This document shows, in pieces, positions 1-63,566 of a stretch of 64,000 nucleotides of DNA. The notes under the pieces were generated by a model. It was given only the letters and a program-made list of their open reading frames with translations, was not told the DNA's origin and made no database searches. Source of the DNA: Candidatus Micrarchaeum acidiphilum ARMAN-2. GTDB lineage: Archaea; Micrarchaeota; Micrarchaeia; Micrarchaeales; Micrarchaeaceae. Each line of letters begins with the position of its first letter. Positions within the stretch are counted from its first letter, which is position 1. The translations under genes and the position numbers were made by a program. The stretch is taken from positions 1-64,000 of the forward strand of contig GG697240.1 in NCBI GenBank assembly GCA_009387755.1. Direction: 5' to 3'.

Positions 1-1
1 T

Positions 2-706: not shown

Positions 707-715
707 GGTACTAAA

Positions 716-1411: not shown

Positions 1412-1531
1412 AGTTATTGGGACTTATAGATATAACGAGAACTTAGATAATCGTAGTTTAATTACACATAAGAGTGAATACCGATTTTTAAAAAAAAGAA
1501 TAACTATTTCTAGTTCCTGCTGGACAACCGC

Positions 1532-2212
1532 ATGGACCTTTTCGAAGGTGTCAAATACGGCATAATAGGAGAGGCGTCTTTCATGGGCTCTAAAATGAAC
1601 ATGCAGACCGCACAGAAAGGTGCCATGAACATCGATATCACCTTTAGGGGCAAGGCTGCCCACGGCTCAAGGCCGTGGCTGGGCGACAACGCGATACTCA
1701 AGGCGATAAAATTTATAGATTCATACCAGCAGGCGGCGGAAAATCTAAAAACTGAAGACAGACTCCTGGGAAAGGGCTCGGTCAACATAGGCACGATAAA
1801 TGGAGGGACTGCCAGCAACGTGGTACCAGATACTTGCAGGGTTGAGGTAGACAGAAGGTTGGTTCCTGGCGAAACTGCTGAAGAGGCGCTGGGGCAGGTT
1901 AAAAGTGTGCTTGAATCTCTCGGGATAAGCGCGGAGATAAGCGTGCCTGTGTCCAGAGGGGCGTATAAGCTTAGGACCGATTCTAAGATACTGGAGATAA
2001 TGAGGCATGCAGCTGGTGAAAACTTCAGTGAAATAGGCGCAACCGGATATACCGAAGCAGAACTTTACAATGCAAGAGCTGGCATAGATTCTGTTGTATT
2101 TGGACCTGGCGAAAAGGAGGTAATCCACCAAGTCGATGAATATGTACCGATAAAGAACCTTCTTGAGGCTGCAAATGTCTACGAGAAGGTAATACGGGAA
2201 TGGTGCTTCTAG
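1532..2212 (+). pseudogene. M20 (ArgE/DapE/CPG2-like) peptidase, 5'-truncated remnant: only the dimerisation and C-terminal catalytic part is present
   Basis: Homology begins at the dimerisation domain ('IIGEAS...ITFRGKAAHGSRPWLGDNAI') and runs to the C-terminal 'GPGE..HQVDEYV'. N-terminal HxD/metal-binding half is absent. Homology starts exactly at the GC-content boundary (~1510). An intact paralog is at 14076-15293. Confidence 0.55.
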
Positions 2213-5212: not shown

Positions 5213-5932
5213 CTAAAATTTTTTGGCTTTGTGACTAGGCGACGCCTTCATAAACCTTGAGATAATGTATTTTTTGCTGAAGCCTGCTCTGTTAAAGTAC
5301 TCCCATATCTGCGATGGTATCGTAGACGGGTCGGTGCCGTATAGCGGATGGTTTCGCTTTACCGTTGCTTCAAACTCACTGTTTTTAACGTTTTTATAAA
5401 GCGATACAACCAATGCAAGCGACTTGGCCTCCTTGCGGCGAGCCCTTTCCAACTCTGCCTTGCTAAGGCAGGATTCTGCAGGGCTTTCAATTACAACGTA
5501 TCTGCTTCCGAGGGCCTTTCGGAATATGTATGACGCCCTCGGCATGTGGTACGCTACCGCAACCAGCAGTATGCGTTTTGTGCCTCGCATTTTGCGGATT
5601 ATCTTGGAGCTGTACAGAGCGTTTCCTATGGTGTCCATGGACCTTTTCTCGGTGATAAGAGCCGAGGCAGGTGCGCCCAAAGAAACTGCATATCGCCTCA
5701 TGCCCTCCGACTCGGTAAGCCTTGGCTTCCTTCTATGCTTAAAGCTCCAGCCGCCGCTGAAAAGTATCGCCTTGGCCCTGCCTTCCTTGAGCAGCAGAAC
5801 CGCGTGCTCTACAATTTTTTTCGATTCGCAGGTCAGGGAACCGCCTTGGCTGATTTCCTTGCCAAGCGCCACTATTATGGTATTGCCGCGGTATTGCATC
5901 TCCTCCTTACGGACAAAGAGCTTTCTAGCCAT
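5213..5932 (-). CDS. DUF218 (YdcF/ElyC-like) domain protein
   Basis: 'ILFSGGWS...TIGNALYS...LLVAVAYHMPRA' is characteristic of DUF218. Start placed at MARKLF (5932) to avoid overlap with the neighbouring gene. Confidence 0.5.
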   Translation of the reverse strand: MARKLFVRKEEMQYRGNTIIVALGKEISQGGSLTCESKKIVEHAVLLLKEGRAKAILFSGGWSFKHRRKPRLTESEGMRRYAVSLGAPASALITEKRSMDTIGNALYSSKIIRKMRGTKRILLVAVAYHMPRASYIFRKALGSRYVVIESPAESCLSKAELERARRKEAKSLALVVSLYKNVKNSEFEATVKRNHPLYGTDPSTIPSQIWEYFNRAGFSKKYIISRFMKASPSHKAKKF

Positions 5933-5988
5933 GCTGTAATCAATCTTACTTTTTACGATCCGGACGCAGCGGCATCTTCCGTGCACGG

Positions 5989-6939
5989 CTATCTTGTCCT
6001 CAACACTATCCTGGCGTTTGCAGAGTATATCTTCTCTGTCTGGGCATCGTCCAGGGAAAGCTGTTTTATGCTGCCCATTATCCTTTCTGTGCTGCCCCAC
6101 GGGTAGTCAGTCCCGAAAATCACATGGTCAATACCGAAAAAGTCCAATGCGATCCTTAGCCACGGCCACCACATCCCTTCTGCTGTATCGACATAAAGGC
6201 TTTTCAGGACGTCGAGCGGATTCTTCCTGTGGGTTTGTGCATATGTTGCGTCCTGCATCGCAAAATCTGAAATCCTTCCCGCAAGGAGCGGCACTATCGA
6301 GCCCAGGTGATGGACCACCACTTTCAGCCTGTCGTGCTTTTCGAGCACTCCGGACCTGAAAAGCCTGAATAGTGCAAGCGTCGTGTCCATGTCCCATCCA
6401 AGCGCTATGTCCGCATTGTAATCCTTAAGCCATGGATATGAATTTGCCATAAATGTCGGGTGTATCCAAAGTCCGGATCCTATGGATTCCAGGACCGAGT
6501 AAAATCCATCCAGCTCCGGTCCGTCTATGGGCTTGCCGTTGACATTAGACACTACCTGTATGCCGGAAAGCCCGAGGTCGTGAATGCACCTCTTCGCTTC
6601 ATCAGCTGCGAAACCAGGATCAGAAAGCGAGACCGTGCCTATCCCAAGGAACCTGTCTTTGTACTTTTCAACAAGGCTTCTTATGCCGTTGTTGGCCTCT
6701 ACGGTTATATGCTTTGTAGACTTTTCGTCTAGGCCCAGCCCATCGATCGCAGGCATGGCAAGAGAGAGCACTTCTTGATCTATGCCTAGCCTGTCCATTA
6801 CAGACAGCCTGTATTCCACATCGCGCAGTGCCCTGAGGGAATTCGCCATGTTTTTTACCATGTCTGGAATGCTTCCCATGGCATTGATATATTCATCCGG
6901 ATATATGTGGTTGAATATGTCAATTTTCATAATAAGCAT
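5989..6939 (-). CDS. Amidohydrolase-2 family metal-dependent hydrolase (ACMSD-like TIM barrel)
   Basis: N-terminus 'MKIDIFNHIYP' (iDxHxH-type motif) and 'WGSTERIMG'. TATA-like CTTATAAATTTAG about 15 nt upstream of the MLIMK start. Confidence 0.6.
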   Translation of the reverse strand: MLIMKIDIFNHIYPDEYINAMGSIPDMVKNMANSLRALRDVEYRLSVMDRLGIDQEVLSLAMPAIDGLGLDEKSTKHITVEANNGIRSLVEKYKDRFLGIGTVSLSDPGFAADEAKRCIHDLGLSGIQVVSNVNGKPIDGPELDGFYSVLESIGSGLWIHPTFMANSYPWLKDYNADIALGWDMDTTLALFRLFRSGVLEKHDRLKVVVHHLGSIVPLLAGRISDFAMQDATYAQTHRKNPLDVLKSLYVDTAEGMWWPWLRIALDFFGIDHVIFGTDYPWGSTERIMGSIKQLSLDDAQTEKIYSANARIVLRTR

Positions 6940-36514: not shown

Positions 36515-38257
36515 ATGTCGCAAAAAATAAGGATTTCGATGTTTTCGGTCGCTGCGGTGCTGCTGGCAGTATTCATGCTTCAGGCGGCATATGCACAGCC
36601 TGCAGGGTCCACCGGCGGAGCTCCGACAGGCAGCGGCGCTCTTTCGATACAGGATCTGTCGGTGTCACCAAACTATGTGGTTTCAGGCGACAACATAAGC
36701 CTGTCATTCCAGCTCTACAATTCTTATTCCAGCAGCCTCAGGAACGTAAACTTGGACCTTGAAGCTTCCAACCCGCTCCTCAACGTGTCGCCATCTTACA
36801 CCAGCTTGGCTGACAGCATAGGCAGCGGGACGTATGGCGGCCTGGGCCTTGATGTATACAGCTACAAGATTCATGTGCCATCCACCCTGCCGGAGGGGGT
36901 TTATACCATTTCCGTAGTAGCCACTTACGAGACAACGGTCAGCGACGGGCTGCTGAGCTACGACGTTCCGGGCGAATCTGTGATGCCGATATACATATAC
37001 GTGCATGGGCTGCCGAAGCTCGGCATCAATCTGGCGCCTTCATCGCAGATAGAGCCAAACCAGAACGTTCAGATGCAGATTGCGGCGACCAACTTCGGAA
37101 CCGGAACCGCTTACAACGTGACTGCGGTTCTTGAGAATTCGACATATTTCAAGCCGTTTGGAAATAAGGTTTTTGTGCTGGGCAACATGGAGCCCGGGAC
37201 ACCCGCAACTGCAGACGCAAACGTGTACGTGGCCAGAAACATAGTAAACGGCACGCAGTTCATCAACATGACAGTATCCTACCAGTACGACAACGGAACG
37301 CATGCCGAGAGCAATGTGAGCGTGCCCGTGGGCGTGCTGCTGAACTCGCCGGATGTGATCGCAACGGTGCAGTCCACTGAGCCGTCAGAACTCTACATTG
37401 GCTCCAACCAGTCGGTGCAGATAGCAATACAGAACGTAGGCTCCGGGCTTGCAAGGAACGTAAGCGTATCAGTATTAAGCGGCAGAGGCACGATAGTCGG
37501 AAGCTCGTCAAGGAGCTTTTTCATAAGTTCGCTGCAGCCAGGACAAAGTGCAACTGAAAGCGTCATGGTAAGCTCCAATGAGAGCAACCCGCAGAACTCG
37601 TCAGACATCTATGCGATGATAGGGTATGAGGGCGCCAACTACATGGGCAATTACTCAAAGACCGTTGCGATACCACTCAGCCTGTTCCCATCGGCAGAAT
37701 TCAACGTGACAGCAGTAAGGGGCAGCCTGACACCTGGAGGAACGTACCTGCCGGTCACTTACGAAATAAAGAATATAGGGAACGAGCCGGCAAAGGAGGT
37801 GTCGCTCTCGCTGCAGTCAATATACCCGATAACTCCTGTCTCAGGAACTGCATATGTGGAAAGCATAATGCCCGGCGAAGCCGCCAATGTGACCTTCTAC
37901 GTGGATGTTGATCCGAACGGCGCACAGGGCTCCTACCCTGTAACGATATATGAGCAGTGGAGGCAGCCGAACGGGGCGTCTTCCCAGCAGTTCTCAGGAT
38001 CCAGCAGCTATTACATAAAGGTAGGAGATGCTGGAGCCAGTTCAAGCTCAGGGGCAGGCTCAAATGCAGGGCAGCAGGGTGCTGGTCAAAGCGCAATTGG
38101 CATAGTAATTGCAGTTGTTGTGATATTGGCGATAGCTGCGTTCGTAATGCGCAAAAGGTCTTCGGCGTCGAGGGCCAGTGCCAAAAGAGATTCAAATGAG
38201 CAGCAGGACGAAAAGCGAGGAGAAGGCCGCAGGAGGGGCGTGAAACAGGGTAGCTGA
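36515..38257 (+). CDS. Secreted, heavily N-glycosylated cell-surface protein with a C-terminal TM anchor (CARDB/COG1361-like 'S-layer domain' architecture)
   Basis: Signal peptide (MSQKIRISMFSVAAVLLAVFMLQAAYA). Repeated beta-rich modules with many NxS/T sequons. C-terminal 'IGIVIAVVVILAIAAFVMRKR' followed by a basic tail. Confidence 0.6.
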   Translation: MSQKIRISMFSVAAVLLAVFMLQAAYAQPAGSTGGAPTGSGALSIQDLSVSPNYVVSGDNISLSFQLYNSYSSSLRNVNLDLEASNPLLNVSPSYTSLADSIGSGTYGGLGLDVYSYKIHVPSTLPEGVYTISVVATYETTVSDGLLSYDVPGESVMPIYIYVHGLPKLGINLAPSSQIEPNQNVQMQIAATNFGTGTAYNVTAVLENSTYFKPFGNKVFVLGNMEPGTPATADANVYVARNIVNGTQFINMTVSYQYDNGTHAESNVSVPVGVLLNSPDVIATVQSTEPSELYIGSNQSVQIAIQNVGSGLARNVSVSVLSGRGTIVGSSSRSFFISSLQPGQSATESVMVSSNESNPQNSSDIYAMIGYEGANYMGNYSKTVAIPLSLFPSAEFNVTAVRGSLTPGGTYLPVTYEIKNIGNEPAKEVSLSLQSIYPITPVSGTAYVESIMPGEAANVTFYVDVDPNGAQGSYPVTIYEQWRQPNGASSQQFSGSSSYYIKVGDAGASSSSGAGSNAGQQGAGQSAIGIVIAVVVILAIAAFVMRKRSSASRASAKRDSNEQQDEKRGEGRRRGVKQGS

Positions 38258-40537: not shown

Positions 40538-42673
40538 TTACCTGCCCTTTTGCCTGCGGGCAAGCGCATAAGCGAATATTACCGCCACCACTATTATTAT
40601 TAATGCAGCAATTATGCCGCTGTCGTTGCTGGAGGGTTTTGGCACGGCTGGTACGGTTGTCGCGGGTGTAGTGGTAGGCGCAATAGTGGTGGTTGGAACT
40701 GTGGTGTTTGCGTATAGTGCGACTATCGGGTCTGATGAAACGCTGAATGATATAGTGCATGTTACCGGGTTTACAGTGTAAGGCACTATTGGTTGCAGCG
40801 AACCGTTCACGAGTTCGTATGGCGCAGTTGGGTATCCTGATGCGCAGTCATAGGTAGTGGTTATGTTTGCGGTTATGCTGCCTGCAGAGGTAAAGTTTAG
40901 TATGAATGCCTTAACCATTGTGTGGTTGGCGAAGAACGGCAATGTGCCAGTGTAGTTTGCAATTGTGAAATTGACGTTAGTCGAATTTGGAGAAGGAGTT
41001 GCAAATGAAACGAACATGCCCAGGTTGCCGAAGCTAATGTTAAAGGGCTTTCCGGCCGATGTACCGAAAGATCCAGTATATGAAGCTGTTGAACTGGATA
41101 TGTTTAGAGTGTGTTGCGGCACGGTTGTCGTTGCAGTAGAGGTTGTAGTTGAATTGACAATGTACAGCACGGTTGTCGTTGCAATCGAGGTAGATGTGCT
41201 GGTTGCATGGCCTGAACCCGGCGCTTGCACTTCGTATGCGTAGGTTATGGAGTCTGCGGAATAGTTGGCGTTGCCTGTTTCATTGAAAGTGTAGGTATAG
41301 AGCCCTATTGAGTTTGAACCAGTGTAAGTTATAGTGTTGGACGTGCTGCCTACAAGCGTTCCGTTTAGATAGAGTTTGGCGGTTATCTGGCTGTTGTATG
41401 TTTCTATCGAAGCAATCGTATTGCATGACAGACCATCGACAGTATAGGTGCTGCAGGACTGGGGGAACGACATTTTCGGCGCTGCCTTGTATATAGAATA
41501 ATTTCCAATCGAGAATCCTTCTGCATATACAACGTTGCCTGTGTTGTAGAACTCAAAGGAGTAGTTGCCAGCAACTGCGGGTGCGTTGTAGGCAATCGAC
41601 CCAAAACCGGCTGTGGAAGAGTCAACCTTTGAATATGGGCCACCGTTCACTGACATGTATAGGTTGCCTATTGCGTTTGACGGAGATATTGAAGCGGTTA
41701 CGGTTGCATTAGAGCCATTGTATACGAAGCTGCGTGGCACAGAAATTGAAGTATGCGCAGCCGCAGCAGATATCACAAAATTTTCTATTATGTTTGCTGG
41801 GGTGTAGTTTGCATTTCCAGGCGTTTCGAATTCAAGTGTGTAGTTGCCCACGTTTATTGCGTTGATCGGCGCGGTCTGTACATGGCCCGGCGCATTTGCC
41901 GAATAGGTTGCGATAGTATTGCCATTTAGCATCAGTGTGCCGCCTAGTGGCTGCAATGTATTGGATATTGAGAATGTTGCAGTTGCGTTTATGGAATTGC
42001 CAGTGTATACGTAGCTAGAAGCTATTCCAGACAAGTGGATGTCTGGCGTTGCCTTTGATATAGTGTATATGTCGTTTGAAACGCCTATGCCGGTGTAGTT
42101 CGAATTTGGTATCTGGAAGTCAAGCGCATATGTGCCTGCAGCTGCAGGGAGAGAATATTCGGTTTCAGGGCTTAGTTTTATTGCGACAATCGTATAGTTA
42201 TTTGCTTCGTTTTCATATCCAGAAGGTCCTATAAGGTAAACCGTCCCATTTTTTCCCGTAAAGGCATAGTAAGGATCTTCGTAGAATGGTACTGTTTGAA
42301 TGCCGCCGACTTGGGCGTTTGTAGTGGTATTCAGAACTACTACGCCGTACGCATATGATCCAGAATACCCGCTAGAAGATGGATCGTAGCTAAAAAGATA
42401 GACATTGCCTCCGGACACGGCAGATATATACGGATAGTATACCGGAACGTTTTTTACAGTAGATCTTGTATGGGTGTTGTACACTTCAACATACTCTCCA
42501 TAATATATAGGTATATACAAGTATTCACCATTGGATGATATTGATATTTGGCCGGTATCCTCCTCGGATGTTGGTATTCTGTATTGCAAGGTGTTTGTAG
42601 TTGTATTTATTACTGTAAAATCATAGTAGTATCCTGAAACATAGAGGTGCCTGCCGCTGGGCGAAAGCACCAT
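40538..42673 (-). CDS. Giant surface glycoprotein, C-terminal segment: Ig-like repeats, Thr/Pro linker and a C-terminal TM anchor
   Basis: Begins with a YVTN-type repeat that is in frame with upstream sequence beyond the annotated ATG. Repeats such as 'MSVNGGPYSKVDSS..AYNAPAVAGNYSF' match those in the upstream ORF. C-terminal 'IIAALIIIVVAVIFAYALARRQKGR'. Confidence 0.6.
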   Translation of the reverse strand: MVLSPSGRHLYVSGYYYDFTVINTTTNTLQYRIPTSEEDTGQISISSNGEYLYIPIYYGEYVEVYNTHTRSTVKNVPVYYPYISAVSGGNVYLFSYDPSSSGYSGSYAYGVVVLNTTTNAQVGGIQTVPFYEDPYYAFTGKNGTVYLIGPSGYENEANNYTIVAIKLSPETEYSLPAAAGTYALDFQIPNSNYTGIGVSNDIYTISKATPDIHLSGIASSYVYTGNSINATATFSISNTLQPLGGTLMLNGNTIATYSANAPGHVQTAPINAINVGNYTLEFETPGNANYTPANIIENFVISAAAAHTSISVPRSFVYNGSNATVTASISPSNAIGNLYMSVNGGPYSKVDSSTAGFGSIAYNAPAVAGNYSFEFYNTGNVVYAEGFSIGNYSIYKAAPKMSFPQSCSTYTVDGLSCNTIASIETYNSQITAKLYLNGTLVGSTSNTITYTGSNSIGLYTYTFNETGNANYSADSITYAYEVQAPGSGHATSTSTSIATTTVLYIVNSTTTSTATTTVPQHTLNISSSTASYTGSFGTSAGKPFNISFGNLGMFVSFATPSPNSTNVNFTIANYTGTLPFFANHTMVKAFILNFTSAGSITANITTTYDCASGYPTAPYELVNGSLQPIVPYTVNPVTCTISFSVSSDPIVALYANTTVPTTTIAPTTTPATTVPAVPKPSSNDSGIIAALIIIVVAVIFAYALARRQKGR

Positions 42674-45600
42674 ATAGAAAGGATAGGAAACGAATCTGAG
42701 CCAAGGCTTATCTGTGTTATTGCATTTGTGGCAAGGTTTATGGCATCTATGCTGTTTGTACCGTAGTTTGACGCGTAGAGCACTGTGTCGTTCTTGCTAA
42801 GGACGTCGTAGTAAATCTCCGACGAGCTGTTTGGAAGAACTATGCTGTTTACAATCTTGTTTGTTGCAAGATTTAGTACCAATATGGTATTTCCTGCGTA
42901 TGATGATACATATGCATAGTCGGTAACGTTTGATATTGCAATGCCGTAAGATTCGAATCCGCTAGGCAGATATATTATGTCGTTGCCAAAGGTTGAGCCA
43001 GGAGGATAATAATAGACAGTATTAGACTCTGTAGTGAAATATGCAGTTCCGTTTTTACTTTCTGCCCCGGCATAGAATGGTACTGTTGTTATTCCGTTTG
43101 AGTTTAAAAGTGATGGTTTTGGCAGCGTATTGCCGTTTAAGGTTGCACTAAGGCCGAGCTGCGAGGCATTGGCATTATATGCAGTTACAGTGAAGTTTGT
43201 TCCTGTGTAAACTGAGTTTGAAGGAAGAGAGCTCACAACCTTTAGAGAGGCAGGGGATATTGTTAGTGTAGACACTGCGTTTGAGGGAACGTAATTGCCA
43301 GAAAGGACAGGAACCGCTTTCAAAGAATAGCTGCCTACTGCTGCAGGGCCTGTGTAAGCAAAGTTAAACTTTGTCGGGGCAGATATATTTTTTATTACAG
43401 TAATATTTTTAAGCTCGGTAAAGTTTTCATAGTTGATTAAGTATATGTCACTGCCATCCGTAACTGAATATTCAGTATAATTTGAACCTGTGTTTATTGA
43501 CCCCATCAGACTCCCAGAAGAAACGTTCACAATATAGGTAACGCTATTGGCTCTTAAAGAGCTATTGCTTGCGAAGACATACCCACCCAAAGCAGAAACT
43601 GCAGTCATCCCGCTTGGAATTCCAGAAATGGCGCTTAATGTGCCAGTAGCTGTATTGTATACAACAACACCAGTGCTGCCAGCATCTGCAGGTATGTACA
43701 GGTTAGAGCCGACCAGTGCCATATTTGAACCTGCTTTTGTTAAGTATTGGGAAAGTGATACAGCTGTTACTGTGTAGGTACTTGTGTTTATCAAATAAAG
43801 TGAAGAGGAATTTTCTGCCACATATATCGTATTTCCGTTCTGAGACAGTGCTATTGAGTACGGACCCGAGGAGCTCGGAAGCGACACATTTTTTATTACT
43901 GTGCCCGTGCTTGTGTTTACCACAGTTATGCTGTCAGTACCGTAGTCCGTTACATATAACAATTTCCCATCTGGCGAAGCAGCTATGTAATATGGTTTTA
44001 TTGAAGAAAGTAGCAAAGAGTTGCTGCTCAGTGGTATGTCTTTTTCCACTGTATTGGTGGATAAGTTAAAAACCGCCAAAGTGCCGTTAAGGTAGTTGGT
44101 AATGTAAGCATTGCCCGTGTTGTTCGGAATCACGATCCCTGTGGGGCCGTTTAGAAGGCTTGAGTTTATGTTTTTTACAACTGCACTGGTCTTGGTATTA
44201 ATTACTGATATTAAATTATAATAGTACGCTGGAGAATAAAGGTAAGTGCCGTTTTGCGACACTGCGGCGCCATAATAGCCGTAATAGGGGCTTGTCTTTA
44301 TGGGCATCAGCTCCAAATTTACTGGGAGTTCGGTGCTGCTTTGGACAAGAGTGTTGTTAACGTATAGGTCAATTCCAATCGTATTGCTGTAATATGTTGT
44401 AAGGCCGTAGCTTATTATCGCATTTGAGCCGTCGTAAGTGAAGCTGTTTGACGGAAGCACGGATATGCTTGGCTTGGGGTTATACTGGCTTATTATGTAG
44501 TTTGCCGTGGTGCTTTCTGCGCTGTAAATCGCGTTTGCGTCAGTAGCCAAAGTAAACGAGTACGATCCAGCAGATGCAGGTGCGTTGTATGTTATGGTAT
44601 TGGATGAAGACGTAAGCGCGACAACGTCAATGCCCGTGCCTCCGTTGACAGACATTATCAGGTTTCCGGTCAGGCCGGAAGGATACACCGACGCGGTTAC
44701 GGTTGCGTTTACTGCATTGTAGGTAAAGCTGGATGGGACCTCAAGAGACAGCGATGGAGTCAGGCTGTTTACCGTAAATAGTTTCGATGAAAACGCGGTT
44801 ACTGCGGGTGAAGCGCTGTCTGTAAGGGTCACGTTGGCGAAATATGTGCCTGGGTCCAGAGTGCCTGTTGAGTAGTTTGCAATGCCGTTATTTGCATTTA
44901 TTGTTACGCTATTGCTTTCGGTAAAGCCTGTGAATGGATTTGAAATTGATATAGCAACCGAATACGGCGGAGTGCCATTGACAGCCTTTATCTTGACCGT
45001 TGGGAAATTTGGATATGTCAATGAGTTAGATGATAGTGTCTCTATTATTTTTGGGGCTGCAGTTATCACGAAGTTGCCGGATAGGGATGAGTTTGTTTCG
45101 GGACCTGTGCCGCTAGAGTCTGCAACAGTTGCCTTCAGGTAGTATGTTCCTGGTGCAAGATCATTGCTCTGTATTGGTATATTCGCAGTATCAGAGGAAA
45201 TTCCGCCCAGGCTGAGGCCAGGTAGCCCTGTCATTAACGCATTTGATGTTGCATTATAAATGTAAACGTTGGCAGTGTATGGCTCTGTGCCGCCGGTCCA
45301 CGACAGCGATGCGCTGAAAGGCTGCCCCTGCTCTATGAGATTTGAGCTCAGGGATATGGAAGGTACGGACAAGGTGGGGCTTACGGTATATGTGATGCTG
45401 TCTGGAGAGCCGGAAGACTCAAATGTGTAGGGACTTGCACCGCCGTTGTTCGTTTCTTCATCTATCGCCTTTACGTAATAGCTGTAACTGCCAGGAGTGT
45501 TAGGCAAGTTAAATGTGAAGCTGCCTGAAGAGCCTGGCGAGTTTAATGTTAATGTATTGCCTATCTGTGAGCCGTTTTGCGCGGATATCAAAGACACTTC

Positions 45601-46461
45601 GAACGGGCCTATCCCACCATTAAGAGCGAAGCCAAACGTAGCAGACTGACCCTGATCATAATTAAAATTAGTGACTGATAGTCTGATTGTAGGCGTCCCT
45701 GCAACATATAGCGGCATTGCAGTAGAACTTTTAGTTTCCGGATTCCCATAGGAGCTGTCTTTCACTACTGCACAATAATATATGGTGCCTGTAGTCGTAG
45801 GAGACACAGTAAACGATTCTGAGTAAGTGGTTATGTCATTTGATGAATCTACAAGTGTAGCGCCAGATCCCCCACAGGAACTCGTAGAGCTTGAATACAA
45901 ATTAACTGTGAACGGAGGAGTTCCTGTAGCGAACGAGTTATTCGGGTAATTCCATTTGACCGTCATAATGGCTGATTGGCCAACGTCCAATGCGTTTGTA
46001 GAAAGAGAGAGTGTTGGAGTTACAAGGTTGTAATTTACAGTATATGTTGCTTTGGCCGATGCGATTTCAGCGCCGTTACCCGAATCATTGTATGTAGTAA
46101 ATGTTATGTTATATGGACCGTAAAGTGGCGCAAATGTCAAAGATCCATTATCCAGACAACCAGTATTTATATTAGTCCCGTTAGATATTAGGCTATAGTT
46201 ATAAGATTGGCCATTTGTTTCAGATGTTTCATTTATAAAACATTCACCGCCAAGACTTGTTTCGGCTTTTATTTGTATATCGTATGCCATAGTTGGAGTT
46301 CCGCTTCCGTTTGGGGGAAGACCAACCCCGGTTCCGGTAAAAGTAAATACGGTTGTTGTATAATTGTGGGAGCTTCTGGTGTCAACACTGACGTTCTGCG
46401 GGCTAATTGTGGCTGTACCTGCATGGCTTAGATGTATTATCGGTAAAGTAAAAACTAGCAC
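42610..46461 (-). CDS. Giant surface glycoprotein, N-terminal segment: signal peptide, Ig-like domains and YVTN beta-propeller repeats
   Basis: Signal peptide 'MLVFTLPIIHLSHAGTAT'. Dense NxS/T sequons. Repeats such as 'LLYVTDYGTDSITVVNTSTGTV'. Ends in a stop after a frame change. Confidence 0.65.
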   Translation of the reverse strand: MLVFTLPIIHLSHAGTATISPQNVSVDTRSSHNYTTTVFTFTGTGVGLPPNGSGTPTMAYDIQIKAETSLGGECFINETSETNGQSYNYSLISNGTNINTGCLDNGSLTFAPLYGPYNITFTTYNDSGNGAEIASAKATYTVNYNLVTPTLSLSTNALDVGQSAIMTVKWNYPNNSFATGTPPFTVNLYSSSTSSCGGSGATLVDSSNDITTYSESFTVSPTTTGTIYYCAVVKDSSYGNPETKSSTAMPLYVAGTPTIRLSVTNFNYDQGQSATFGFALNGGIGPFEVSLISAQNGSQIGNTLTLNSPGSSGSFTFNLPNTPGSYSYYVKAIDEETNNGGASPYTFESSGSPDSITYTVSPTLSVPSISLSSNLIEQGQPFSASLSWTGGTEPYTANVYIYNATSNALMTGLPGLSLGGISSDTANIPIQSNDLAPGTYYLKATVADSSGTGPETNSSLSGNFVITAAPKIIETLSSNSLTYPNFPTVKIKAVNGTPPYSVAISISNPFTGFTESNSVTINANNGIANYSTGTLDPGTYFANVTLTDSASPAVTAFSSKLFTVNSLTPSLSLEVPSSFTYNAVNATVTASVYPSGLTGNLIMSVNGGTGIDVVALTSSSNTITYNAPASAGSYSFTLATDANAIYSAESTTANYIISQYNPKPSISVLPSNSFTYDGSNAIISYGLTTYYSNTIGIDLYVNNTLVQSSTELPVNLELMPIKTSPYYGYYGAAVSQNGTYLYSPAYYYNLISVINTKTSAVVKNINSSLLNGPTGIVIPNNTGNAYITNYLNGTLAVFNLSTNTVEKDIPLSSNSLLLSSIKPYYIAASPDGKLLYVTDYGTDSITVVNTSTGTVIKNVSLPSSSGPYSIALSQNGNTIYVAENSSSLYLINTSTYTVTAVSLSQYLTKAGSNMALVGSNLYIPADAGSTGVVVYNTATGTLSAISGIPSGMTAVSALGGYVFASNSSLRANSVTYIVNVSSGSLMGSINTGSNYTEYSVTDGSDIYLINYENFTELKNITVIKNISAPTKFNFAYTGPAAVGSYSLKAVPVLSGNYVPSNAVSTLTISPASLKVVSSLPSNSVYTGTNFTVTAYNANASQLGLSATLNGNTLPKPSLLNSNGITTVPFYAGAESKNGTAYFTTESNTVYYYPPGSTFGNDIIYLPSGFESYGIAISNVTDYAYVSSYAGNTILVLNLATNKIVNSIVLPNSSSEIYYDVLSKNDTVLYASNYGTNSIDAINLATNAITQISLGSDSFPILSIWCFRPAAGTSMFQDTTMILQ

Positions 46462-46732
46462 CGCGAACAGGAGAATTAGGGGCTTTATCGCATTGCTGCT
46501 TATTTTATCACGTTATTATACAAACAAACTGTGCTATGCTTGTTTATACTATACTTGATTATACTCTTTTTATTGTTTTTTCATGCGGTTGTTATAAATA
46601 CTTTTTGCTTTTCCGTAGCGTAGTTGAATACAAGAAATTGGATTTGCCAGGCTGCCTATTTGGCGCACGAATCAGAGTGCGGCTGAGACTTCCGGTTGAT
46701 ACCTGCTTTGCATTTTGCGCGTACCGGGCCTT

Positions 46733-57721: not shown

Positions 57722-60244
57722 ATGGATGCTGACGTGAAGGATATCTTTGACCTGGCATACGAGAACGCGCTTGCGCGCCGCGCACATGTCGATAGCAACT
57801 ACATTGATGCACTCAATCATGGCATTGAAGTTGCCCTTGGCAAGAAGGACGCCGCAGACTTAAGCGTAGAAGCAGGAAAGCTTGATTCCGTACTGCTTGC
57901 CTTGGAAAGCATAAATAGCATATGCGAAGCAAAGGCGTACAGCGAAAGCTTGGAATTCTTTCCGGTCAGGCACAGCATTTCTAGAGACACAAAGAGGAAG
58001 AGTATGGTAACCATAAGGCTAAGGGCGGGAGAGGCTAAATTCAAGACTCCGGATAGCGCCAAACCGGCAAATTCAAGCGCCACTACAATTGAGCGTAATG
58101 TGCATGAAACTGTAGCACAGGTTACAGCACGGCCAAAAAAGGAAACACCCGGCGCTATGGGATTTGCCGAAGTGGTAAACAGCAGCTATGAAAAAATTGC
58201 AGAGCATTACAAGAGGCTGAGCAAGGAAGAGTACGGCATAGAATTCAAAGTACCTGAAGTCAGAATGTTTTCAGATGACAAAGCAGAGCCCGACAACGAA
58301 TCGAAATTTAAAGCGGGCGTCTTGGGCTACTACAAAGACTCTGAAAACACCATTCATCTAACTAGGGCGCTATATGAAAAATATTTATTAAATGATACCT
58401 CGATCCGCAATGAGGATATTTATTTGACATTGGAGCATGAACTCGGACATGCATTTGCTACGCAGATGGGCTATGACAAAACTTATGGGCTACGCGGCGA
58501 ATACTATGGCAGCAGCCGCCTAAGATACAGGGGGATAAGAGATATTGTTGCCTCAGAATTTTTGGCAAACCTTTTCGGGGCAAGGATTGATATCGAGATT
58601 AAAGGCGCATCTCCCACAAATAAAGCTCTGGCCGATGAGCTCCTCAATCAGGCGACACTTGACTACTTATACAAGGATACAGATGCAGCAAAGATTTATT
58701 TTGATACGCTTTTGAAAAAATCCAAGGAGCTCATGGATAAGCACGCCGAAATTAAGACTGAATTCAAGAAAAAGAAGCGCGACTACACTGACAATGGTGG
58801 TGAGATAGACTTGGGATACTTTAAAACTTACCTTCTTGAAGCCACTGCAGAGGCCATAACGTACTTGAAATTCATAGAAGACGGGCTTTCTGCGCTGGAG
58901 ATTTATGGCGGACCTGTGCTAGGGGCTGTAAAGGCTCTTGAGGAGGGAATGAGTTTCGACAGGCTGGTCAGCAAGGCGTCGAAAAATATAAAATCCTTGA
59001 AATATGTAAAAGAATACTTTCCTGGCGCGGCCGCGGTAGAATACTCAAGCCTGTATTCGTCTTTTGATCTCTTTGAAAGCCTGGGCCCGTATATGACGGA
59101 CGTGCTTGGCCTGAGCACAGATCAAAACAAAAATTTGAATCCAGAAAAGCGCATGCGCGATGAACTTGAAAAATGTGAGGATGCAATAGGAGGGATGGAG
59201 GGGTACTTTAAAAGGATGGAGCGCGTGGGCAGGGACATGTACGAAAACGAAAAGAAGGTCCTTGGCGAAATGGAAAGGCTTAAGAAAGAATTGAATGGCG
59301 CCCTACCTGGGCCGGGCGGGAACAAAGTCCAAGCGGCCAATGCGGATATGCAGATGTACAACATGCTGGATAACAGCGCAATCGAGCTTCATGACATTGC
59401 CAGGCGCCTCGAATCCGAGTTTAATGGAGCAAGTGCCAAAGAAAAACTGCAAGACAAAGCATTCTTATATTCATTATTGGATGACCTCGGGAAAATGGTG
59501 TTGCGCGATCTGAATGGAATGATGAGGCTTGCGGCTGGAGACGCGTGGATTGACTTGAAGCCAAGCGATTTCAAAGTGGGGGAGGATATAGACGTCCCTG
59601 TATCTTTAGGAATTCTAGGAATTTACAAATCGAAGAGTTTCAGAGTAGATCCGTTTGAAGGTATCAAGAACCTCATTGAACCCATGGAAAGATATGAAGG
59701 AAACATTAGCGAACGCACTGCATACGATTTAGTAAGGCACCTATATCAGTTAGTAGTCCATGAGGGCTTTCATGCAGTACAGAATGAAAGATTAAATTCG
59801 GAAAAACAGGTAAATAGGGTCCTGCACGGCAAGGATACGGATATTTTCATAGAAGGCGGAGCCCATTTTGTGGAAAGGTATGTGAAGGCGCTCATAGAAG
59901 CTAGGGAGCGGGACAGGATTAGAAGCGCGGATGATATAAAACATATGTTCCTAGATGAATTTAATTTGTCGTCAGTTGCAAAATTGCTCGATGAAAAGCC
60001 CAGAAGTATAGCAGGTAAGCTGCATAAATATAGCGCGTATGACGTCGGCATGTTTATGTTTACGGTCAGGTACGTTGCGAACGGCAGCTTCATAAGCACG
60101 CTAAATGAAATCCGTAAAATGGCAGACGAAGATGGTACAGGCGGTATAAGCAACAGGAAACTTTACCAGATGTTGGACAGGGACATTGAAAATGGCAACG
60201 TTGCCAAGCTGAAAAGAGAGATTCAAGCGTACCGAATAAAGTAA
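57722..60244 (+). CDS. Large (840 aa) soluble protein with two HExxH zincin-like motifs; uncharacterised family
   Basis: 'LTLEHELGHAF' and 'LVVHEGFHAVQ'. Coiled-coil stretches. The N-terminal ~115 aa are homologous to the partial ORF at 63645-64000. Confidence 0.5.
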   Translation: MDADVKDIFDLAYENALARRAHVDSNYIDALNHGIEVALGKKDAADLSVEAGKLDSVLLALESINSICEAKAYSESLEFFPVRHSISRDTKRKSMVTIRLRAGEAKFKTPDSAKPANSSATTIERNVHETVAQVTARPKKETPGAMGFAEVVNSSYEKIAEHYKRLSKEEYGIEFKVPEVRMFSDDKAEPDNESKFKAGVLGYYKDSENTIHLTRALYEKYLLNDTSIRNEDIYLTLEHELGHAFATQMGYDKTYGLRGEYYGSSRLRYRGIRDIVASEFLANLFGARIDIEIKGASPTNKALADELLNQATLDYLYKDTDAAKIYFDTLLKKSKELMDKHAEIKTEFKKKKRDYTDNGGEIDLGYFKTYLLEATAEAITYLKFIEDGLSALEIYGGPVLGAVKALEEGMSFDRLVSKASKNIKSLKYVKEYFPGAAAVEYSSLYSSFDLFESLGPYMTDVLGLSTDQNKNLNPEKRMRDELEKCEDAIGGMEGYFKRMERVGRDMYENEKKVLGEMERLKKELNGALPGPGGNKVQAANADMQMYNMLDNSAIELHDIARRLESEFNGASAKEKLQDKAFLYSLLDDLGKMVLRDLNGMMRLAAGDAWIDLKPSDFKVGEDIDVPVSLGILGIYKSKSFRVDPFEGIKNLIEPMERYEGNISERTAYDLVRHLYQLVVHEGFHAVQNERLNSEKQVNRVLHGKDTDIFIEGGAHFVERYVKALIEARERDRIRSADDIKHMFLDEFNLSSVAKLLDEKPRSIAGKLHKYSAYDVGMFMFTVRYVANGSFISTLNEIRKMADEDGTGGISNRKLYQMLDRDIENGNVAKLKREIQAYRIK

Positions 60245-60385
60245 GGTCATTCCCGCGGAGGATGAAGGCGAACTGCAGGCAAGTATAATGCCTCCTTATG
60301 CCGTTTGAGACTATGACTTAATACCCTGTTTAGTTTGGTATGCTCCCCATTGAATTTGCCTAATTGGAAGTTAGATCTTACATTT

Positions 60386-61876
60386 TCATCTGCAAAATTT
60401 ATCCTTCTGAATTCCGTAGTGTCCTAGCACAAGGTACGACCTTACTGAAGTATAAATATATAAAGCTGCTTATCCACAACACTATTGGTGTTTGTTTCAA
60501 AAAATGACATAAATAGCGGACTGTGGTATAATGAGTTTTGTGGATTTTTTTGTTGAATCTTACAGGAAGGCATTCGGAATAATGCTTCATCCTGGGAAAA
60601 ACGCAAGAGGTGCACTTAGCGTTGGCGATGCACTGAAATTCTATTACACTATAGCGATAATACCTTTGATACTTGGAGTTGCCTTGTCCCTGCTGACAAA
60701 TGCAAGCTTCCTCAGCGTATTTGGAGGGTTTTCCGGAAGCAGTGCGTTGGGACCTGGCGCAGCCGCACCTGGTGGCGGACTGTATTTTGCATTATACCTT
60801 ATAGCGTTTTTCGCAGTCCTTGTGCCACTTGGCCTGTTATTTGACACCGCGATGTACCACGTAATAATAAAGTCGCTTTTAAAGATGTACAACAAGCCAT
60901 ACTCGACGGCATTTACTGCGTTCACCTACGCCATGATACCGGCGGTGCTTGTTTATTGGCTACTTCCATTAGGCATACTTGGGTATCTGGTAATACTGCT
61001 GTTTGGCTTGTGGAGCTTAGTAATAGAAATAATCTCACTTTCGAACCTGCTTTCTATAAGCAGGCTTATGGCGTTAGGTAGCCTCATACTTGACGAGCTT
61101 ATAGTTGCGGTAATATTATTCGGGGCGCTGTTCCTGGCAATTCTTGGTTCGGCGGGGCCGATGCTGCTAAATTCCTCCGTAATAAGCAGCAACCATTCCG
61201 TGCCTACAACCATACCCAACTATATTAACACAACCAGCATTGCAGTTCCGGCCACAACAATCCCAAGCACTAACACTAGCCAGAGCGGACCTTATTCCAG
61301 CATAGTAGGCACACAACCTGCTAGCACATCGTCTGCGAACTACTCTTCGTGTGCAAATTTTACAATATCAAATCCTAATGAATATAACCAGACAAGCCAC
61401 GCCAGCACTTTAGTATACGCCACATGCAAATGGGGTGGGGGCATGCTCTACGTTTATACGGCTGGAGGAAACTCCGGTTATGCGCATCTGAACATAAACG
61501 GAAGCAACGGCAAGACATATTTTGCCAATTCGACGAACTCGAGGTGCTATGCATATGCAGGTTCCTTCTATGCCCCGGCGCAGGATTACAAGCTTTGGAT
61601 AAGTGCGGGAGGAGGAGGCGGAATTTGCGGCAATGCAGCTGCACTGATCGTATCGGCCAACCATGTAAATACTTCGGCTGCAGCGCCCGGATCAAGCATA
61701 AAGCTTCCGTTCGGCAGCATGCTATTCTCCTCGAGCAGCACGCCGTCCAATGTCAGCTCCGCGGCCAACAGGATTCTTGGCAGCACGCAGCTTGATTTTT
61801 ATTCGAATGACAGTGCAAGAGTACTGCTTCAGAACGGAACAGAGATCTGGCTGGGCACCATCCCGTTAAACGAATC
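60386..61876. repeat. Tandem duplication unit, copy 1 (1,491 bp; promoter plus a Yip1-like gene lacking its last ~51 codons)
   Basis: Sequence from 60386 matches 61877 onward base for base as far as compared, apart from a 21-nt indel. Junction lies at ...AACGAATC|TCATCTGCAAAATTT. Confidence 0.85.
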
Positions 61877-61901
61877 TCATCTGCAAAATTTATCCTTCTG
61901 A
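60531..61901 (+). CDS. Yip1-like multi-TM membrane protein with a Ser/Thr/Asn-rich extracytoplasmic C-terminal domain; C-terminally truncated copy
   Basis: Five TM helices after 'MSFVDFFVESYRKAF'. The last 7 codons (HLQNLSF*) are read from duplicated promoter sequence across the duplication junction. Confidence 0.55.
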   Translation: MSFVDFFVESYRKAFGIMLHPGKNARGALSVGDALKFYYTIAIIPLILGVALSLLTNASFLSVFGGFSGSSALGPGAAAPGGGLYFALYLIAFFAVLVPLGLLFDTAMYHVIIKSLLKMYNKPYSTAFTAFTYAMIPAVLVYWLLPLGILGYLVILLFGLWSLVIEIISLSNLLSISRLMALGSLILDELIVAVILFGALFLAILGSAGPMLLNSSVISSNHSVPTTIPNYINTTSIAVPATTIPSTNTSQSGPYSSIVGTQPASTSSANYSSCANFTISNPNEYNQTSHASTLVYATCKWGGGMLYVYTAGGNSGYAHLNINGSNGKTYFANSTNSRCYAYAGSFYAPAQDYKLWISAGGGGGICGNAAALIVSANHVNTSAAAPGSSIKLPFGSMLFSSSSTPSNVSSAANRILGSTQLDFYSNDSARVLLQNGTEIWLGTIPLNESHLQNLSF

Positions 61902-63388
61902 ATTCCGTAGTGTCCTAGCACAAGGTACGACCTTACTGAAGTATAAATATATAAAGCTGCTTATCCACAACACTATTGGTGTTTGTTTCAAAAAATGACA
62001 TAAATAGCGGACTGTGGTATAATGAGTTTTGTGGATTTTTTTGTTGAATCTTACAGGAAGGCATTCGGAATAATGCTTCATCCTGGGAAAAACGCAAGAG
62101 GTGCACTTAGCGTTGGCGATGCACTGAAATTCTATTACACTATAGCGATAATACCTTTGATACTTGGAGTTGCCTTGTCCCTGCTGACAAATGCAAGCTT
62201 CCTCAGCGTATTTGGAGGGTTTTCCGGAAGCAGTGCGTTGGGACCTGGCGCAGCCGCACCTGGTGGCGGACTGTATTTTGCATTATACCTTATAGCGTTT
62301 TTCGCAGTCCTTGTGCCACTTGGCCTGTTATTTGACACCGCGATGTACCACGTAATAATAAAGTCGCTTTTAAAGATGTACAACAAGCCATACTCGACGG
62401 CATTTACTGCGTTCACCTACGCCATGATACCGGCGGTGCTTGTTTATTGGCTACTTCCATTAGGCATACTTGGGTATCTGGTAATACTGCTGTTTGGCTT
62501 GTGGAGCTTAGTAATAGAAATAATCTCACTTTCGAACCTGCTTTCTATAAGCAGGCTTATGGCGTTAGGTAGCCTCATACTTGACGAGCTTATAGTTGCG
62601 GTAATATTTTACATAATAATTGCTGTGATATTCGGGGCGCTGTTCCTGGCAATTCTTGGTTCGGCGGGGCCGATGCTGCTAAATTCCTCCGTAATAAGCA
62701 GCAACCATTCCGTGCCTACAACCATACCCAACTATATTAACACAACCAGCATTGCAGTTCCGGCCACAACAATCCCAAGCACTAACACTAGCCAGAGCGG
62801 ACCTTATTCCAGCATAGTAGGCACACAACCTGCTAGCACATCGTCTGCGAACTACTCTTCGTGTGCAAATTTTACAATATCAAATCCTAATGAATATAAC
62901 CAGACAAGCCACGCCAGCACTTTAGTATACGCCACATGCAAATGGGGTGGGGGCATGCTCTACGTTTATACGGCTGGAGGAAACTCCGGTTATGCGCATC
63001 TGAACATAAACGGAAGCAACGGCAAGACATATTTTGCCAATTCGACGAACTCGAGGTGCTATGCATATGCAGGTTCCTTCTATGCCCCGGCGCAGGATTA
63101 CAAGCTTTGGATAAGTGCGGGAGGAGGAGGCGGAATTTGCGGCAATGCAGCTGCACTGATCGTATCGGCCAACCATGTAAATACTTCGGCTGCAGCGCCC
63201 GGATCAAGCATAAAGCTTCCGTTCGGCAGCATGCTATTCTCCTCGAGCAGCACGCCGTCCAATGTCAGCTCCGCGGCCAACAGGATTCTTGGCAGCACGC
63301 AGCTTGATTTTTATTCGAATGACAGTGCAAGAGTACTGCTTCAGAACGGAACAGAGATCTGGCTGGGCACCATCCCGTTAAACGAATC
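61877..63388. repeat. Tandem duplication unit, copy 2 (1,512 bp; contains a 21-nt insertion relative to copy 1)
   Basis: Extra 'tttacataataattgctgtga' gives FYIIIAV in the protein. Otherwise identical to copy 1. Confidence 0.85.
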
Positions 63389-63566
63389 TGTCAGCCAGAT
63401 GAGCCTGTACTACAAGTCCTGGCCCGGCGGCTACGTTTCGGAGGGCATCAGATTCGAGAACATTGACTTGCTGATATCAGGCAGCGCCACTTCTGCAGTA
63501 GTTACGGCAACATATCCTGCAGATTCGAACTACACATTCGTAGTGGATTATGGAGGCGTGGGCTGA
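62022..63566 (+). CDS. Yip1-like multi-TM membrane protein with a glycosylated extracytoplasmic C-terminal domain; full-length copy
   Basis: 514 aa. Same N-terminus as copy 1 and an intact C-terminus (...YTFVVDYGGVG). Many NxS/T sequons, plus 'ISAGGGGGICGN'. Confidence 0.6.
   Translation: MSFVDFFVESYRKAFGIMLHPGKNARGALSVGDALKFYYTIAIIPLILGVALSLLTNASFLSVFGGFSGSSALGPGAAAPGGGLYFALYLIAFFAVLVPLGLLFDTAMYHVIIKSLLKMYNKPYSTAFTAFTYAMIPAVLVYWLLPLGILGYLVILLFGLWSLVIEIISLSNLLSISRLMALGSLILDELIVAVIFYIIIAVIFGALFLAILGSAGPMLLNSSVISSNHSVPTTIPNYINTTSIAVPATTIPSTNTSQSGPYSSIVGTQPASTSSANYSSCANFTISNPNEYNQTSHASTLVYATCKWGGGMLYVYTAGGNSGYAHLNINGSNGKTYFANSTNSRCYAYAGSFYAPAQDYKLWISAGGGGGICGNAAALIVSANHVNTSAAAPGSSIKLPFGSMLFSSSSTPSNVSSAANRILGSTQLDFYSNDSARVLLQNGTEIWLGTIPLNESVSQMSLYYKSWPGGYVSEGIRFENIDLLISGSATSAVVTATYPADSNYTFVVDYGGVG

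Follow-up and report, generated by a model that had tools for sequence, protein, structure and literature searches.

The window, that is the whole 64,000-nt stretch of the Candidatus Micrarchaeum acidiphilum ARMAN-2 reference that was analysed, contains two adjacent ORFs on the minus strand whose products are identical to deposited GenBank proteins (Table 1). The upstream product, EET89936.1, consists of 1257 native residues followed by 26 residues translated out of frame (FPILSIWCFRPAAGTSMFQDTTMILQ) up to a double stop, such that its C-terminus reads ...ISLGSDSFPILSIWCF...ILQ. The peptide PAAGTSMFQDTTMILQ is part of this aberrant tail, and the truncated product reads ...SDSFPILSIWCFR at the junction, where the intact protein has the peptide NDTVLYASNYGTNSIDAINLATNAITQISLGSDSYPFYMVLSPSGR. 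The downstream product, EET89935.1, starts with MVLSPSGRHLYVSG... and corresponds to residues 1262–1972 of the intact protein. No Shine-Dalgarno-like motif was found for the downstream ORF. It also has no signal peptide, in agreement with a preliminary description of the locus, which had also stated correctly that the downstream frame is open upstream of its ATG (41 codons, back to a stop at 42797–42799). The codon starts on the minus strand fall at coordinates 0 mod 3 in the upstream ORF and 1 mod 3 in the downstream ORF; the latter is thus in the -1 (= +2) frame relative to the former, rather than in the +1 frame given previously.

Both ORFs are colinearly covered by single proteins of 1938–1985 residues, which places the link between them far beyond chance, and two proteins of 1972 residues (P0023 and P0028) match the two ORFs exactly after deletion of 5 nt. 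EET89935.1 and EET89936.1 represent the two parts of a single conserved gene with about 1972 codons, broken, as had been proposed, by one frame-shifting lesion. A literature search for this frameshift or for the locus tags of the ORF pair returned nothing relevant.

Table 1. Features of the interrupted gene in the window (positions in nt; residues numbered on the intact protein).
Feature	Position	Strand	Remarks
Whole interrupted gene	40538..46461	-	1972 codons from the GTG start in all other assemblies
Upstream ORF	42610..46461	-	Identical to GenBank EET89936.1 (1283 aa)
Downstream ORF	40538..42673	-	Identical to GenBank EET89935.1 / UNLARM2_0379 (711 aa)
Putative short signal peptide	46420..46461	-	MLVFTLPIIHLSHA, then G; counted from the GTG start, cleavage site predicted from sequence
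First YVTN-type beta-propeller	43402..44271	-	Residues ~731-1020; TIGR02276, PF10282, 1l0q_A
Private 5-nt insertion interval	42687..42694	-	Absent from L001-L007
Second beta-propeller	42182..43080	-	Residues ~1128-1425; seven blades predicted
Membrane-proximal beta-sandwich domain	40691..41113	-	Residues ~1782-1922; conserved, two invariant cysteines
Thr/Pro-rich linker, single TM helix (40559-40618) and basic tail RRQKGR	40541..40690	-	Sequence; AF2 helix

Translation from the first canonical start of the gene, the GTG at 46461, yields a leader of 14 residues. The hydrophobic stretch runs on in frame upstream to about 46491 (AIKPLILLFA), and this extension contains no in-frame ATG, GTG or TTG. 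The signal peptide formerly assigned to the upstream half is borne out only as an h- and c-region (LILLFAVLVFTLPIIHLSHA followed by G), with no in-frame ATG before it. An out-of-frame ATG (gcaATGcgaTAA) just before the leader prompted consideration of a second frameshift at the 5' end. This was rejected, since the ATG is not conserved (the orthologous locus L009 reads AACGCT) and the 5' end is identical in all eight assemblies.

The intact protein is a surface protein of the type-I, membrane-anchored kind. Its architecture apparently comprises, from the N-terminus, the hydrophobic leader, an Ig-like stalk and two YVTN propellers, each nested in an Ig-like domain; these are followed by further Ig-like domains, the membrane-proximal beta-sandwich, the Thr/Pro linker and the transmembrane anchor. 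Membership of the YVTN repeat family is supported by the 40-residue TIGR02276 model, which matches four stretches of the intact protein with 31.9 bits, above its curated cutoff of 27.85. The first propeller matches 1l0q_A by sequence (E 8.4e-18 over residues 731–898). The AF2 model of the second propeller shows approximately seven four-stranded blades with a core pLDDT of 70–90 and a pTM of 0.68, and its best PDB match in a fold search is again 1l0q_A (E 1.5e-13); the model and the fold and sequence matches together point to a seven-bladed fold like that of this solved archaeal example. A PF25174 match at residues 1182–1340 spans the junction of the two ORFs and is obtained with the intact protein only. 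In the model of the second propeller, the insertion point separates blade 3 from blade 4.

An Ig-like character of the remaining regions is suggested by a Pfam Ig_Pom152 match (41.2 bits, cutoff 27), with AF2 pLDDT values below 50 for the Ig-like parts of the modelled segment; the Pfam search of the intact protein gave no match to a PKD family. The motif YNAPA.AG.YSF, previously noted on both sides of the break, does occur in both halves, once in each (residues 625 and 1623). Self-BLAST detected no internal repeats at E < 1e-3, and the Ig-like repeats are therefore too diverged to be recognized in this way, the short motif alone being recurrent. The membrane-proximal domain is conserved in an alignment of 11 archaeal surface proteins and is modelled with an AF2 pLDDT of 80–90. 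A fold search with this C-terminal domain against the PDB gave no significant match; weak ZU5/GAIN-like matches (E 0.04–0.13) are a lead only. The downstream ORF does carry the Thr/Pro linker and membrane anchor attributed to it, with one strongly hydrophobic segment (residues ~1947–1966), an AF2 helix at residues 209–233 of the modelled segment, and the basic tail.

The closest known structure is that of a surface-layer-related protein from Methanosarcina mazei, which contains tandem YVTN beta-propeller and PKD domains (PDB 1L0Q; Jing et al. 2002, as summarized in PMC5498576) and is the top PDB match for both propellers of the ARMAN-2 protein. Both are archaeal extracellular proteins that combine seven-bladed YVTN propellers with Ig-like beta-sandwich domains; however, their sequence identity is just ~21%, and the ARMAN-2 protein differs in having no Pfam PKD match, two propellers, each apparently set within an Ig-like domain, a long N-terminal Ig-like stalk, a membrane-proximal domain and a TM anchor. 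Mia14, a relative of ARMAN-2, encodes giant strain-specific surface proteins in which the PKD fold and Kelch/YVTN propellers are fused to CARDB (Golyshina et al. 2017, PMC5498576). Likened by description, these share phylum, lifestyle, domain vocabulary and a proposed cell-cell or host role with the ARMAN-2 protein, which differs in lacking a CARDB module. A separate CARDB protein (36515..38257) is encoded 2.3 kb from the split gene in the window. The layout of Thr/Pro linker, TM helix and basic tail is also that of archaeosortase substrates, but the likeness is limited to this general layout, as the NCBIfam models PGF-CTERM and PGF-pre-PGF gave no match at E <= 1.

The S-layer protein of Micrarchaeota, SLP_Mh (Micr_00292), is an abundant lattice protein with a PF05123 domain, and its ARMAN-2 homologue is a different protein under another accession (bioRxiv 10.1101/2021.04.28.441871). 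SLP_Mh and the split-gene product are presumably both glycosylated Micrarchaeum envelope proteins. PF05123 has no match in the intact protein at E <= 1, nor in either ORF at E <= 0.01. Judged by its sequence, the split-gene product is not the Micrarchaeota S-layer protein, and its earlier designation as the major surface protein does not hold. Its role is probably adhesin-like, in cell-cell or host contact.

The lesion was located by comparison with intact alleles in seven independent samples or assemblies of the ARMAN-2 population (L001–L007: the NCBI MAG GCA_026127865.1, three ENA assemblies, two JGI metagenomes and one Logan assembly), each of which agrees with the window at every base over 9–25.6 kb, save for a 5-nt gap. 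It lies within the interval predicted earlier (42,670–42,700) and proves to be a 5-nt insertion instead of the one-nucleotide indel that had been supposed; it shifts the downstream half into the -1/+2 frame. The minus strand reads GATTC(GTTTC)CTATCC, or equivalently GA(TTCGT)TTCCTATCC, the inserted bases being in parentheses, and the exact placement of the extra bases is ambiguous because TTC is present on both flanks. The insertion-bearing allele is GATTCGTTTCCTATCC and the intact allele GATTCCTATCC. Homopolymer runs, to which the preliminary description had drawn particular attention, do not mark the site: none of four or more bases lies nearer than 42620, and no tandem repeat was found at or next to the insertion.

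The intact protein is encoded on at least 28 contig records: one gene call accounts for 24 contigs, and other calls for four further records. Public runs that gave intact contigs include SRR5037039, SRR359025 and SRR191844. Both fragment products are found on one contig only, the 335,072-bp ARMAN-2 contig. An exact-product look-up of both ORFs in the contig index had returned no match; they were found later as cluster members, in the ARMAN-2 record. A search for either allele (CCTTGGCTCAGATTCN{0,5}CTATCC...) gave 0 matches in metagenome_contigs and genome_contigs; as the pattern works on the window and the loci, these collections simply do not contain the ARMAN-2 population. Comparison with orthologues, which had been suggested as a check, showed the gene to be uninterrupted at all five diverged loci (65–79% identity; 77, 73, 65 and 79% for individual orthologues). 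Three of them (L008–L010) share the 11-mer of the intact allele at the insertion site, L011 reads GATTTCGATCC, and both L011 and L024 are in frame there.

These intact alleles refute, for practical purposes, any native design in which the two ORFs are joined by programmed -1/+2 ribosomal frameshifting or encode two separately functional proteins, and the probability of either is negligible. The required shift is indeed -1, the commonest programmed type, and the ORFs overlap by 64 nt; however, no X XXY YYZ slippery heptamer occurs in the 190-nt region of two-frame overlap, and no relative, identical or diverged, shares the shift. As a separate protein, the downstream ORF would be without a signal peptide or RBS-like motif, and the cut would bisect a beta-propeller. 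Reversible phase variation by slipped-strand mispairing at the insertion site is very improbable as well. Surface protein genes are a class in which contingency loci occur, and the surroundings of the insertion are loosely pentamer-like (GATTC GTTTC CTATC CTTTC), but the inserted GTTTC matches each adjoining pentamer only imperfectly and does not reproduce a repeat unit. The site and its immediate flanks contain neither a homopolymer nor a perfect short tandem repeat, the orthologues have no repeat tract at this position, and the assemblies give a single OFF record and at least 28 ON records, without any intermediate allele. Among the three explanations offered previously (sequencing or assembly error, recent inactivating mutation and phase variation), the last is disfavoured and largely refuted, as the repeat tract of a contingency locus is missing, and the first two survive.

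The split of the gene is likely to be an artefact of the 2010 ARMAN-2 reference assembly, caused by five extra bases. These would represent a local error of the reference consensus, possibly introduced through a badly trimmed read or a contig join, and GTTTC looks like a miscalled version of the CTATC after it. The organism would then make one full-length protein, and neither half would be functional alone: the first would end with three of seven blades and 26 junk residues and have no membrane anchor, and the second, with four blades and the anchor, would lack a signal peptide. Over ~60 kb, the window shows no private substitutions relative to the other assemblies and three private structural anomalies, namely the 5-nt insertion, a 1.49-kb tandem duplication and a break into DNA of 28.7% GC. 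The duplication is located at 60386–63388, and the break (join ~1512) truncates a peptidase gene. Real divergence would be expected to produce substitutions before indels, and in prokaryotes small real insertions mostly duplicate neighbouring sequence exactly and in tandem, which GTTTC does not; both considerations favour an artefact. Spurious split genes due to local consensus errors in draft or metagenome-derived references likewise have one private indel, flanks that otherwise match all other assemblies, two adjacent ORFs annotated separately, and further private structural anomalies on the contig. On the other hand, a 5-nt lesion outside a homopolymer is atypical of platform base-calling errors and is not a classic Sanger or 454 error type, and the assembly is otherwise highly accurate at small scale: ~60 kb contain no second small private difference, so that consensus errors must be rare. 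Of the three structural anomalies, two may be genuine (a strain-specific island) or may reflect collapses in the short-read assemblies.

A genuine and very recent loss-of-function allele, which would have truncated the giant surface protein in cells of the biofilm sampled for the reference, is possible but doubtful. It may have been the majority allele there, or possibly a single cloned variant caught in a mosaic consensus. The deposited record carries the insertion and annotates two proteins, and neither half contains a further lesion, as a very young mutation predicts; exactly one lesion with all other bases identical to the intact alleles is not the pattern of a decaying pseudogene, for which multiple lesions or relaxed constraint were sought. 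Null alleles are common in large surface proteins of microbes that depend on hosts or are exposed to viruses, symbiont surface proteins are frequently hit by genuine loss-of-function mutations, and the family is modular and tolerates large changes, as two relatives (P0005 and P0006) lack both propeller cassettes. Such an allele is, however, found in none of the seven assemblies compared and on no recorded contig that encodes the protein, a comparison at the level of assemblies; the other assemblies may derive from later samples, and a real allele may have been transient in the original one. With zero private substitutions in ~60 kb, far fewer than one real private indel would be expected. The insert does not duplicate its flank exactly, and no donor or template-switch source (a copy of the junction 9-mers or longer) was found within 3 kb.

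The split itself is ordinary and probably an assembly artefact, and the main value of the result is for annotation: UniProt C7DH33 and C7DH34 (EET89935.1 and EET89936.1) are fragments of one 1972-aa protein. ARMAN-2 often serves as a reference in DPANN comparative genomics and proteomics, so searches against the split models would overlook peptides across the junction and give a wrong domain architecture. The other two private structural anomalies on the contig call for caution in fine-scale inference from this assembly. It is rather unlikely that the insertion naturally inactivated a candidate host-contact adhesin of 1972 residues in the acid-mine biofilm sampled for the reference. If it did, the knock-out would have occurred in a host-dependent cell, ARMAN-2 being an obligately host-associated DPANN archaeon, and the protein would at times be dispensable or counter-selected, for example as a virus receptor, with the intact allele dominant in later samples. 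In Micrarchaeum, the intact protein may reasonably be considered a candidate for contact with a host or between cells.

The two minus-strand reading frames that the preliminary description assigned to one surface-protein gene are present in the window, and both correspond to deposited products. By cluster membership, ORF1 is GenBank EET89936.1 and ORF2 is EET89935.1 (UNLARM2_0379), both from a 335,072-bp contig of Candidatus Micrarchaeum acidiphilum ARMAN-2, and the two entries were verified to be identical to the window translations. The ORFs overlap by 64 nt. On the minus strand, the first bases of codons have coordinates equal to 0 mod 3 in ORF1 and to 1 mod 3 in ORF2, which puts ORF2 in the -1 (equivalently +2) frame rather than the +1 frame first proposed. 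Its frame is indeed open well upstream of the ATG (41 codons), and the YNAPA.AG.YSF motif reported from both sides of the split occurs once in each half. ORF2 terminates in a Thr/Pro-rich linker, one strongly hydrophobic segment and RRQKGR, in agreement with the linker and membrane anchor described for the C-terminal part, and its hydrophilic N-terminus agrees with the absence of a signal peptide of its own. No GGTGA-like motif was found upstream of ORF2.

Coordinates of the two ORFs and of regions of the intact gene
Feature	Position	Strand	Remarks
ORF1	42610..46461	-	1283 aa, GTG start, ends ...AITQISLGSDSFPILSIWCFRPAAGTSMFQDTTMILQ (double stop)
ORF2	40538..42673	-	711 aa, begins MVLSPSGRHLYVSGYYYDFTVINTTTN
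Both beta-propeller cassettes	42182-44271		absent from relatives P0005 and P0006
Membrane-proximal beta-sandwich domain	40691-41113		signature P..NG.W..I.P..VN...C.VSF..SDP..GL(Y/F)
5'-end region examined	46420-46560; L009 (orthologue locus) 5700-6000; L011 (orthologue locus) 230-330		

A search with the repaired full-length sequence returned a 100%-identical protein that is uninterrupted through the junction, together with three more distant orthologues, full-length and likewise uninterrupted (1938, 1985 and 1974 aa; 77, 73 and 65% identity). The comparison with orthologues, suggested earlier as a check, thus joins ORF1 and ORF2 into one gene. Other members of their cluster, of 1972, 1972, 1865, 1724 and 1059 aa, all have ...ISLGSDSYPFYMVLSPSG... 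at the junction; they differ only because gene callers picked different start codons or because a contig end truncates them.

The lesion was defined by alignment to seven loci, each from a different sample or assembly (NCBI MAG GCA_026127865.1; ENA ERZ27237514, ERZ27237492 and ERZ27237019; JGI 3300030398 and 3300038729; Logan SRR5037039). Against each of them, every base of the window is identical over 9 to 25.6 kb except for one 5-nt gap, where the window reads GGCTCAGATTCGTTTCCTATCC and all seven other loci read GGCTCAGATTCCTATCC. With TTC on both flanks, the exact placement of the extra bases within 42687-42694 is arbitrary (TTCGT ... GTTTC). GATTCCTATCC is also found at this site in three diverged orthologue loci (L008, L009 and L010), which makes the window's state the derived one; a fourth locus, L011 (GATTTCGATCC), and a GTDB representative MAG at 79% identity are likewise uninterrupted. 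The intact product is encoded from one start codon on 24 contigs and appears under other gene calls in four further contig records; the two fragment products are found only on the ARMAN-2 contig. What splits the gene is thus an insertion of 5 nt, private to the window's assembly, and not the one-nucleotide indel of the preliminary description.

The split is real in the deposited sequence, and the gene is otherwise intact and conserved. Over the ~60 kb of the window compared with other assemblies, no private substitution was found; the few SNPs are private to some other contigs, with the remaining contigs matching the window exactly. Structural differences private to the window number three: the 5-nt insertion, a tandem duplication of 1.49 kb and a break at ~1512. 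Since real divergence is expected to give substitutions before indels, this pattern favors an artefact or a non-representative consensus, which is the probable explanation. Genuine short insertions tend to be exact tandem duplications. The inserted GTTTC resembles a garbled copy of the following CTATC, such as an untrimmed read or a contig join might produce. That the original sample contained a real null allele of very recent origin is distinctly less likely. The otherwise excellent small-scale accuracy of the assembly does count against an artefact, as does the fact that surface-protein genes gain genuine null alleles, but the lack of private substitutions and an insert that is not an exact tandem duplication both speak against a real allele. 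Of the origins proposed earlier, sequencing or assembly error and recent inactivation keep unequal shares. Phase variation, the third, is not borne out: the inserted bases do not exactly repeat those beside them, and Tandem Repeats Finder reported no repeat at the site. A search for a donor copy within 3 kb found none. Both frames are open over 190 nt; this stretch lacks any X XXY YYZ heptamer, and its sole homopolymer of at least 4 bases is a TTTT at 42620, distant from the lesion. Phase variation and recoding together are very improbable. The split is ordinary and most likely not a biological feature, and the value of the finding lies mainly in the correction of the annotation.

The tandem direct duplication (60386-63388) comprises copies at 60386-61876 and 61877-63388 that are identical except for 21 nt missing from copy 1 after 61116; three other assemblies carry the unit only once, with the 21 nt present. 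It yields a truncated 456-aa ORF (60531..61901) beside a full 514-aa ORF (62022..63566), neither with a Pfam match, and represents either two strain alleles set in tandem by this assembly or a real duplication collapsed by short-read assemblers. GC content is 28.7% in window 1-1512, vs about 47% elsewhere. Two glycosyltransferase genes (GT4 and GT2) lie in this segment, and four other assemblies have unrelated sequence at its position. The join at ~1512 truncates an M20 peptidase gene, intact in those four assemblies, to a 226-aa remnant at 1532..2212 (373 aa elsewhere); the segment is a foreign island or the product of a chimeric join. One ENA contig has four substitutions in 38 nt (7965, 7968, 7978, 8002), where other contigs are identical to the window; this may be a strain variant or a small recombination tract. 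Some contigs share scattered SNPs, at 8874, 18873 and 24969.

The intact protein matches TIGR02276 (YVTN repeat) above the curated cutoff (31.9 vs 27.85 bits) and an Ig-like family, Ig_Pom152, also above cutoff. Two propellers are marked by PF10282 and PF25174, and the PF25174 match crosses the junction only in the intact protein. At the sequence level, propeller 1 matches 1l0q_A, the tandem YVTN beta-propeller and PKD domains of an archaeal surface-layer protein, with an E of 8.4e-18. An AlphaFold2 model of residues 1071-1469, from a four-sequence alignment, is a beta-propeller of about seven four-stranded blades (core pLDDT 70-90, pTM 0.68; Ig-like flanks below 50), whose best PDB match is also 1l0q_A (E 1.5e-13). 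In the model, residue 1257 (187 of the segment) is the last before the junction, which places the break after the final strand of blade 3 and ahead of the first strand of blade 4. Three blades and 26 junk residues, with no membrane anchor, would make up the 1283-aa product; the 711-aa product would have the other four blades and the anchor, and no leader.

Over its C-terminal 190 residues the protein is modelled as a beta-sandwich (pLDDT 80-90) containing two invariant cysteines, after which come the Thr/Pro linker and TM helix. This domain is common to many archaeal surface proteins from metagenomes; it has no Pfam or NCBIfam match and no significant PDB fold match, its resemblance to ZU5 and GAIN being weak and non-significant (E 0.04-0.13). 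Ser, Thr, Asn and Tyr are abundant in the protein, which has 66 potential N-x-S/T sequons by sequence, vs about 48 expected from composition.

At the 5' end, gene-caller starts disagree (products of 1972, 1865 and 1724 aa). In ARMAN-2 (all eight assemblies) and in L009, the syntenic 77% orthologue, the hydrophobic leader has no in-frame ATG ahead of it, whereas L008 and L011 have one. A 20-nt element, GTGATAAAATAAGCAGCAA(T/C), just upstream of the leader is conserved in three lineages, and an in-frame ATA-AAG in ARMAN-2 and L009. Candidate starts are the GTG at 46461 (14-residue leader) or a non-canonical codon such as this ATA-AAG. A second frameshift, suspected from an out-of-frame ATG, was rejected, as that ATG is not conserved.

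Synteny of the immediate neighbors (612-aa, 211-aa membrane and 110-aa ORFs) is kept in L009, not in L008. Other predicted envelope proteins are abundant nearby (36515-38257 and 57722-63566), including a 580-aa CARDB-domain protein (36515-38257) adjoining an ABC-2 transporter, and 840-aa and 514-aa ORFs (57722-63566) without a family match.

The label of major surface protein is not retained. The S-layer protein SLP_Mh has PF05123, for which profile searches gave no match in the intact protein or the ORFs, and its ARMAN-2 homologue has a different accession; identity with the S-layer protein was thus rejected. In P0005 and P0006 (1132 and 1203 aa), which lack both cassettes, the Ig-like halves are directly joined, which, together with the layout read from the sequence, suggests that each propeller is nested inside an Ig-like domain, with flanking strands completing one Ig unit, and that the family evolves by gain and loss of propeller cassettes. 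In the related Mia14, Golyshina et al. described comparable PKD/YVTN surface proteins of giant size and proposed roles in cell-cell interaction; by analogy, an adhesin-like role for the intact protein is a reasonable inference.
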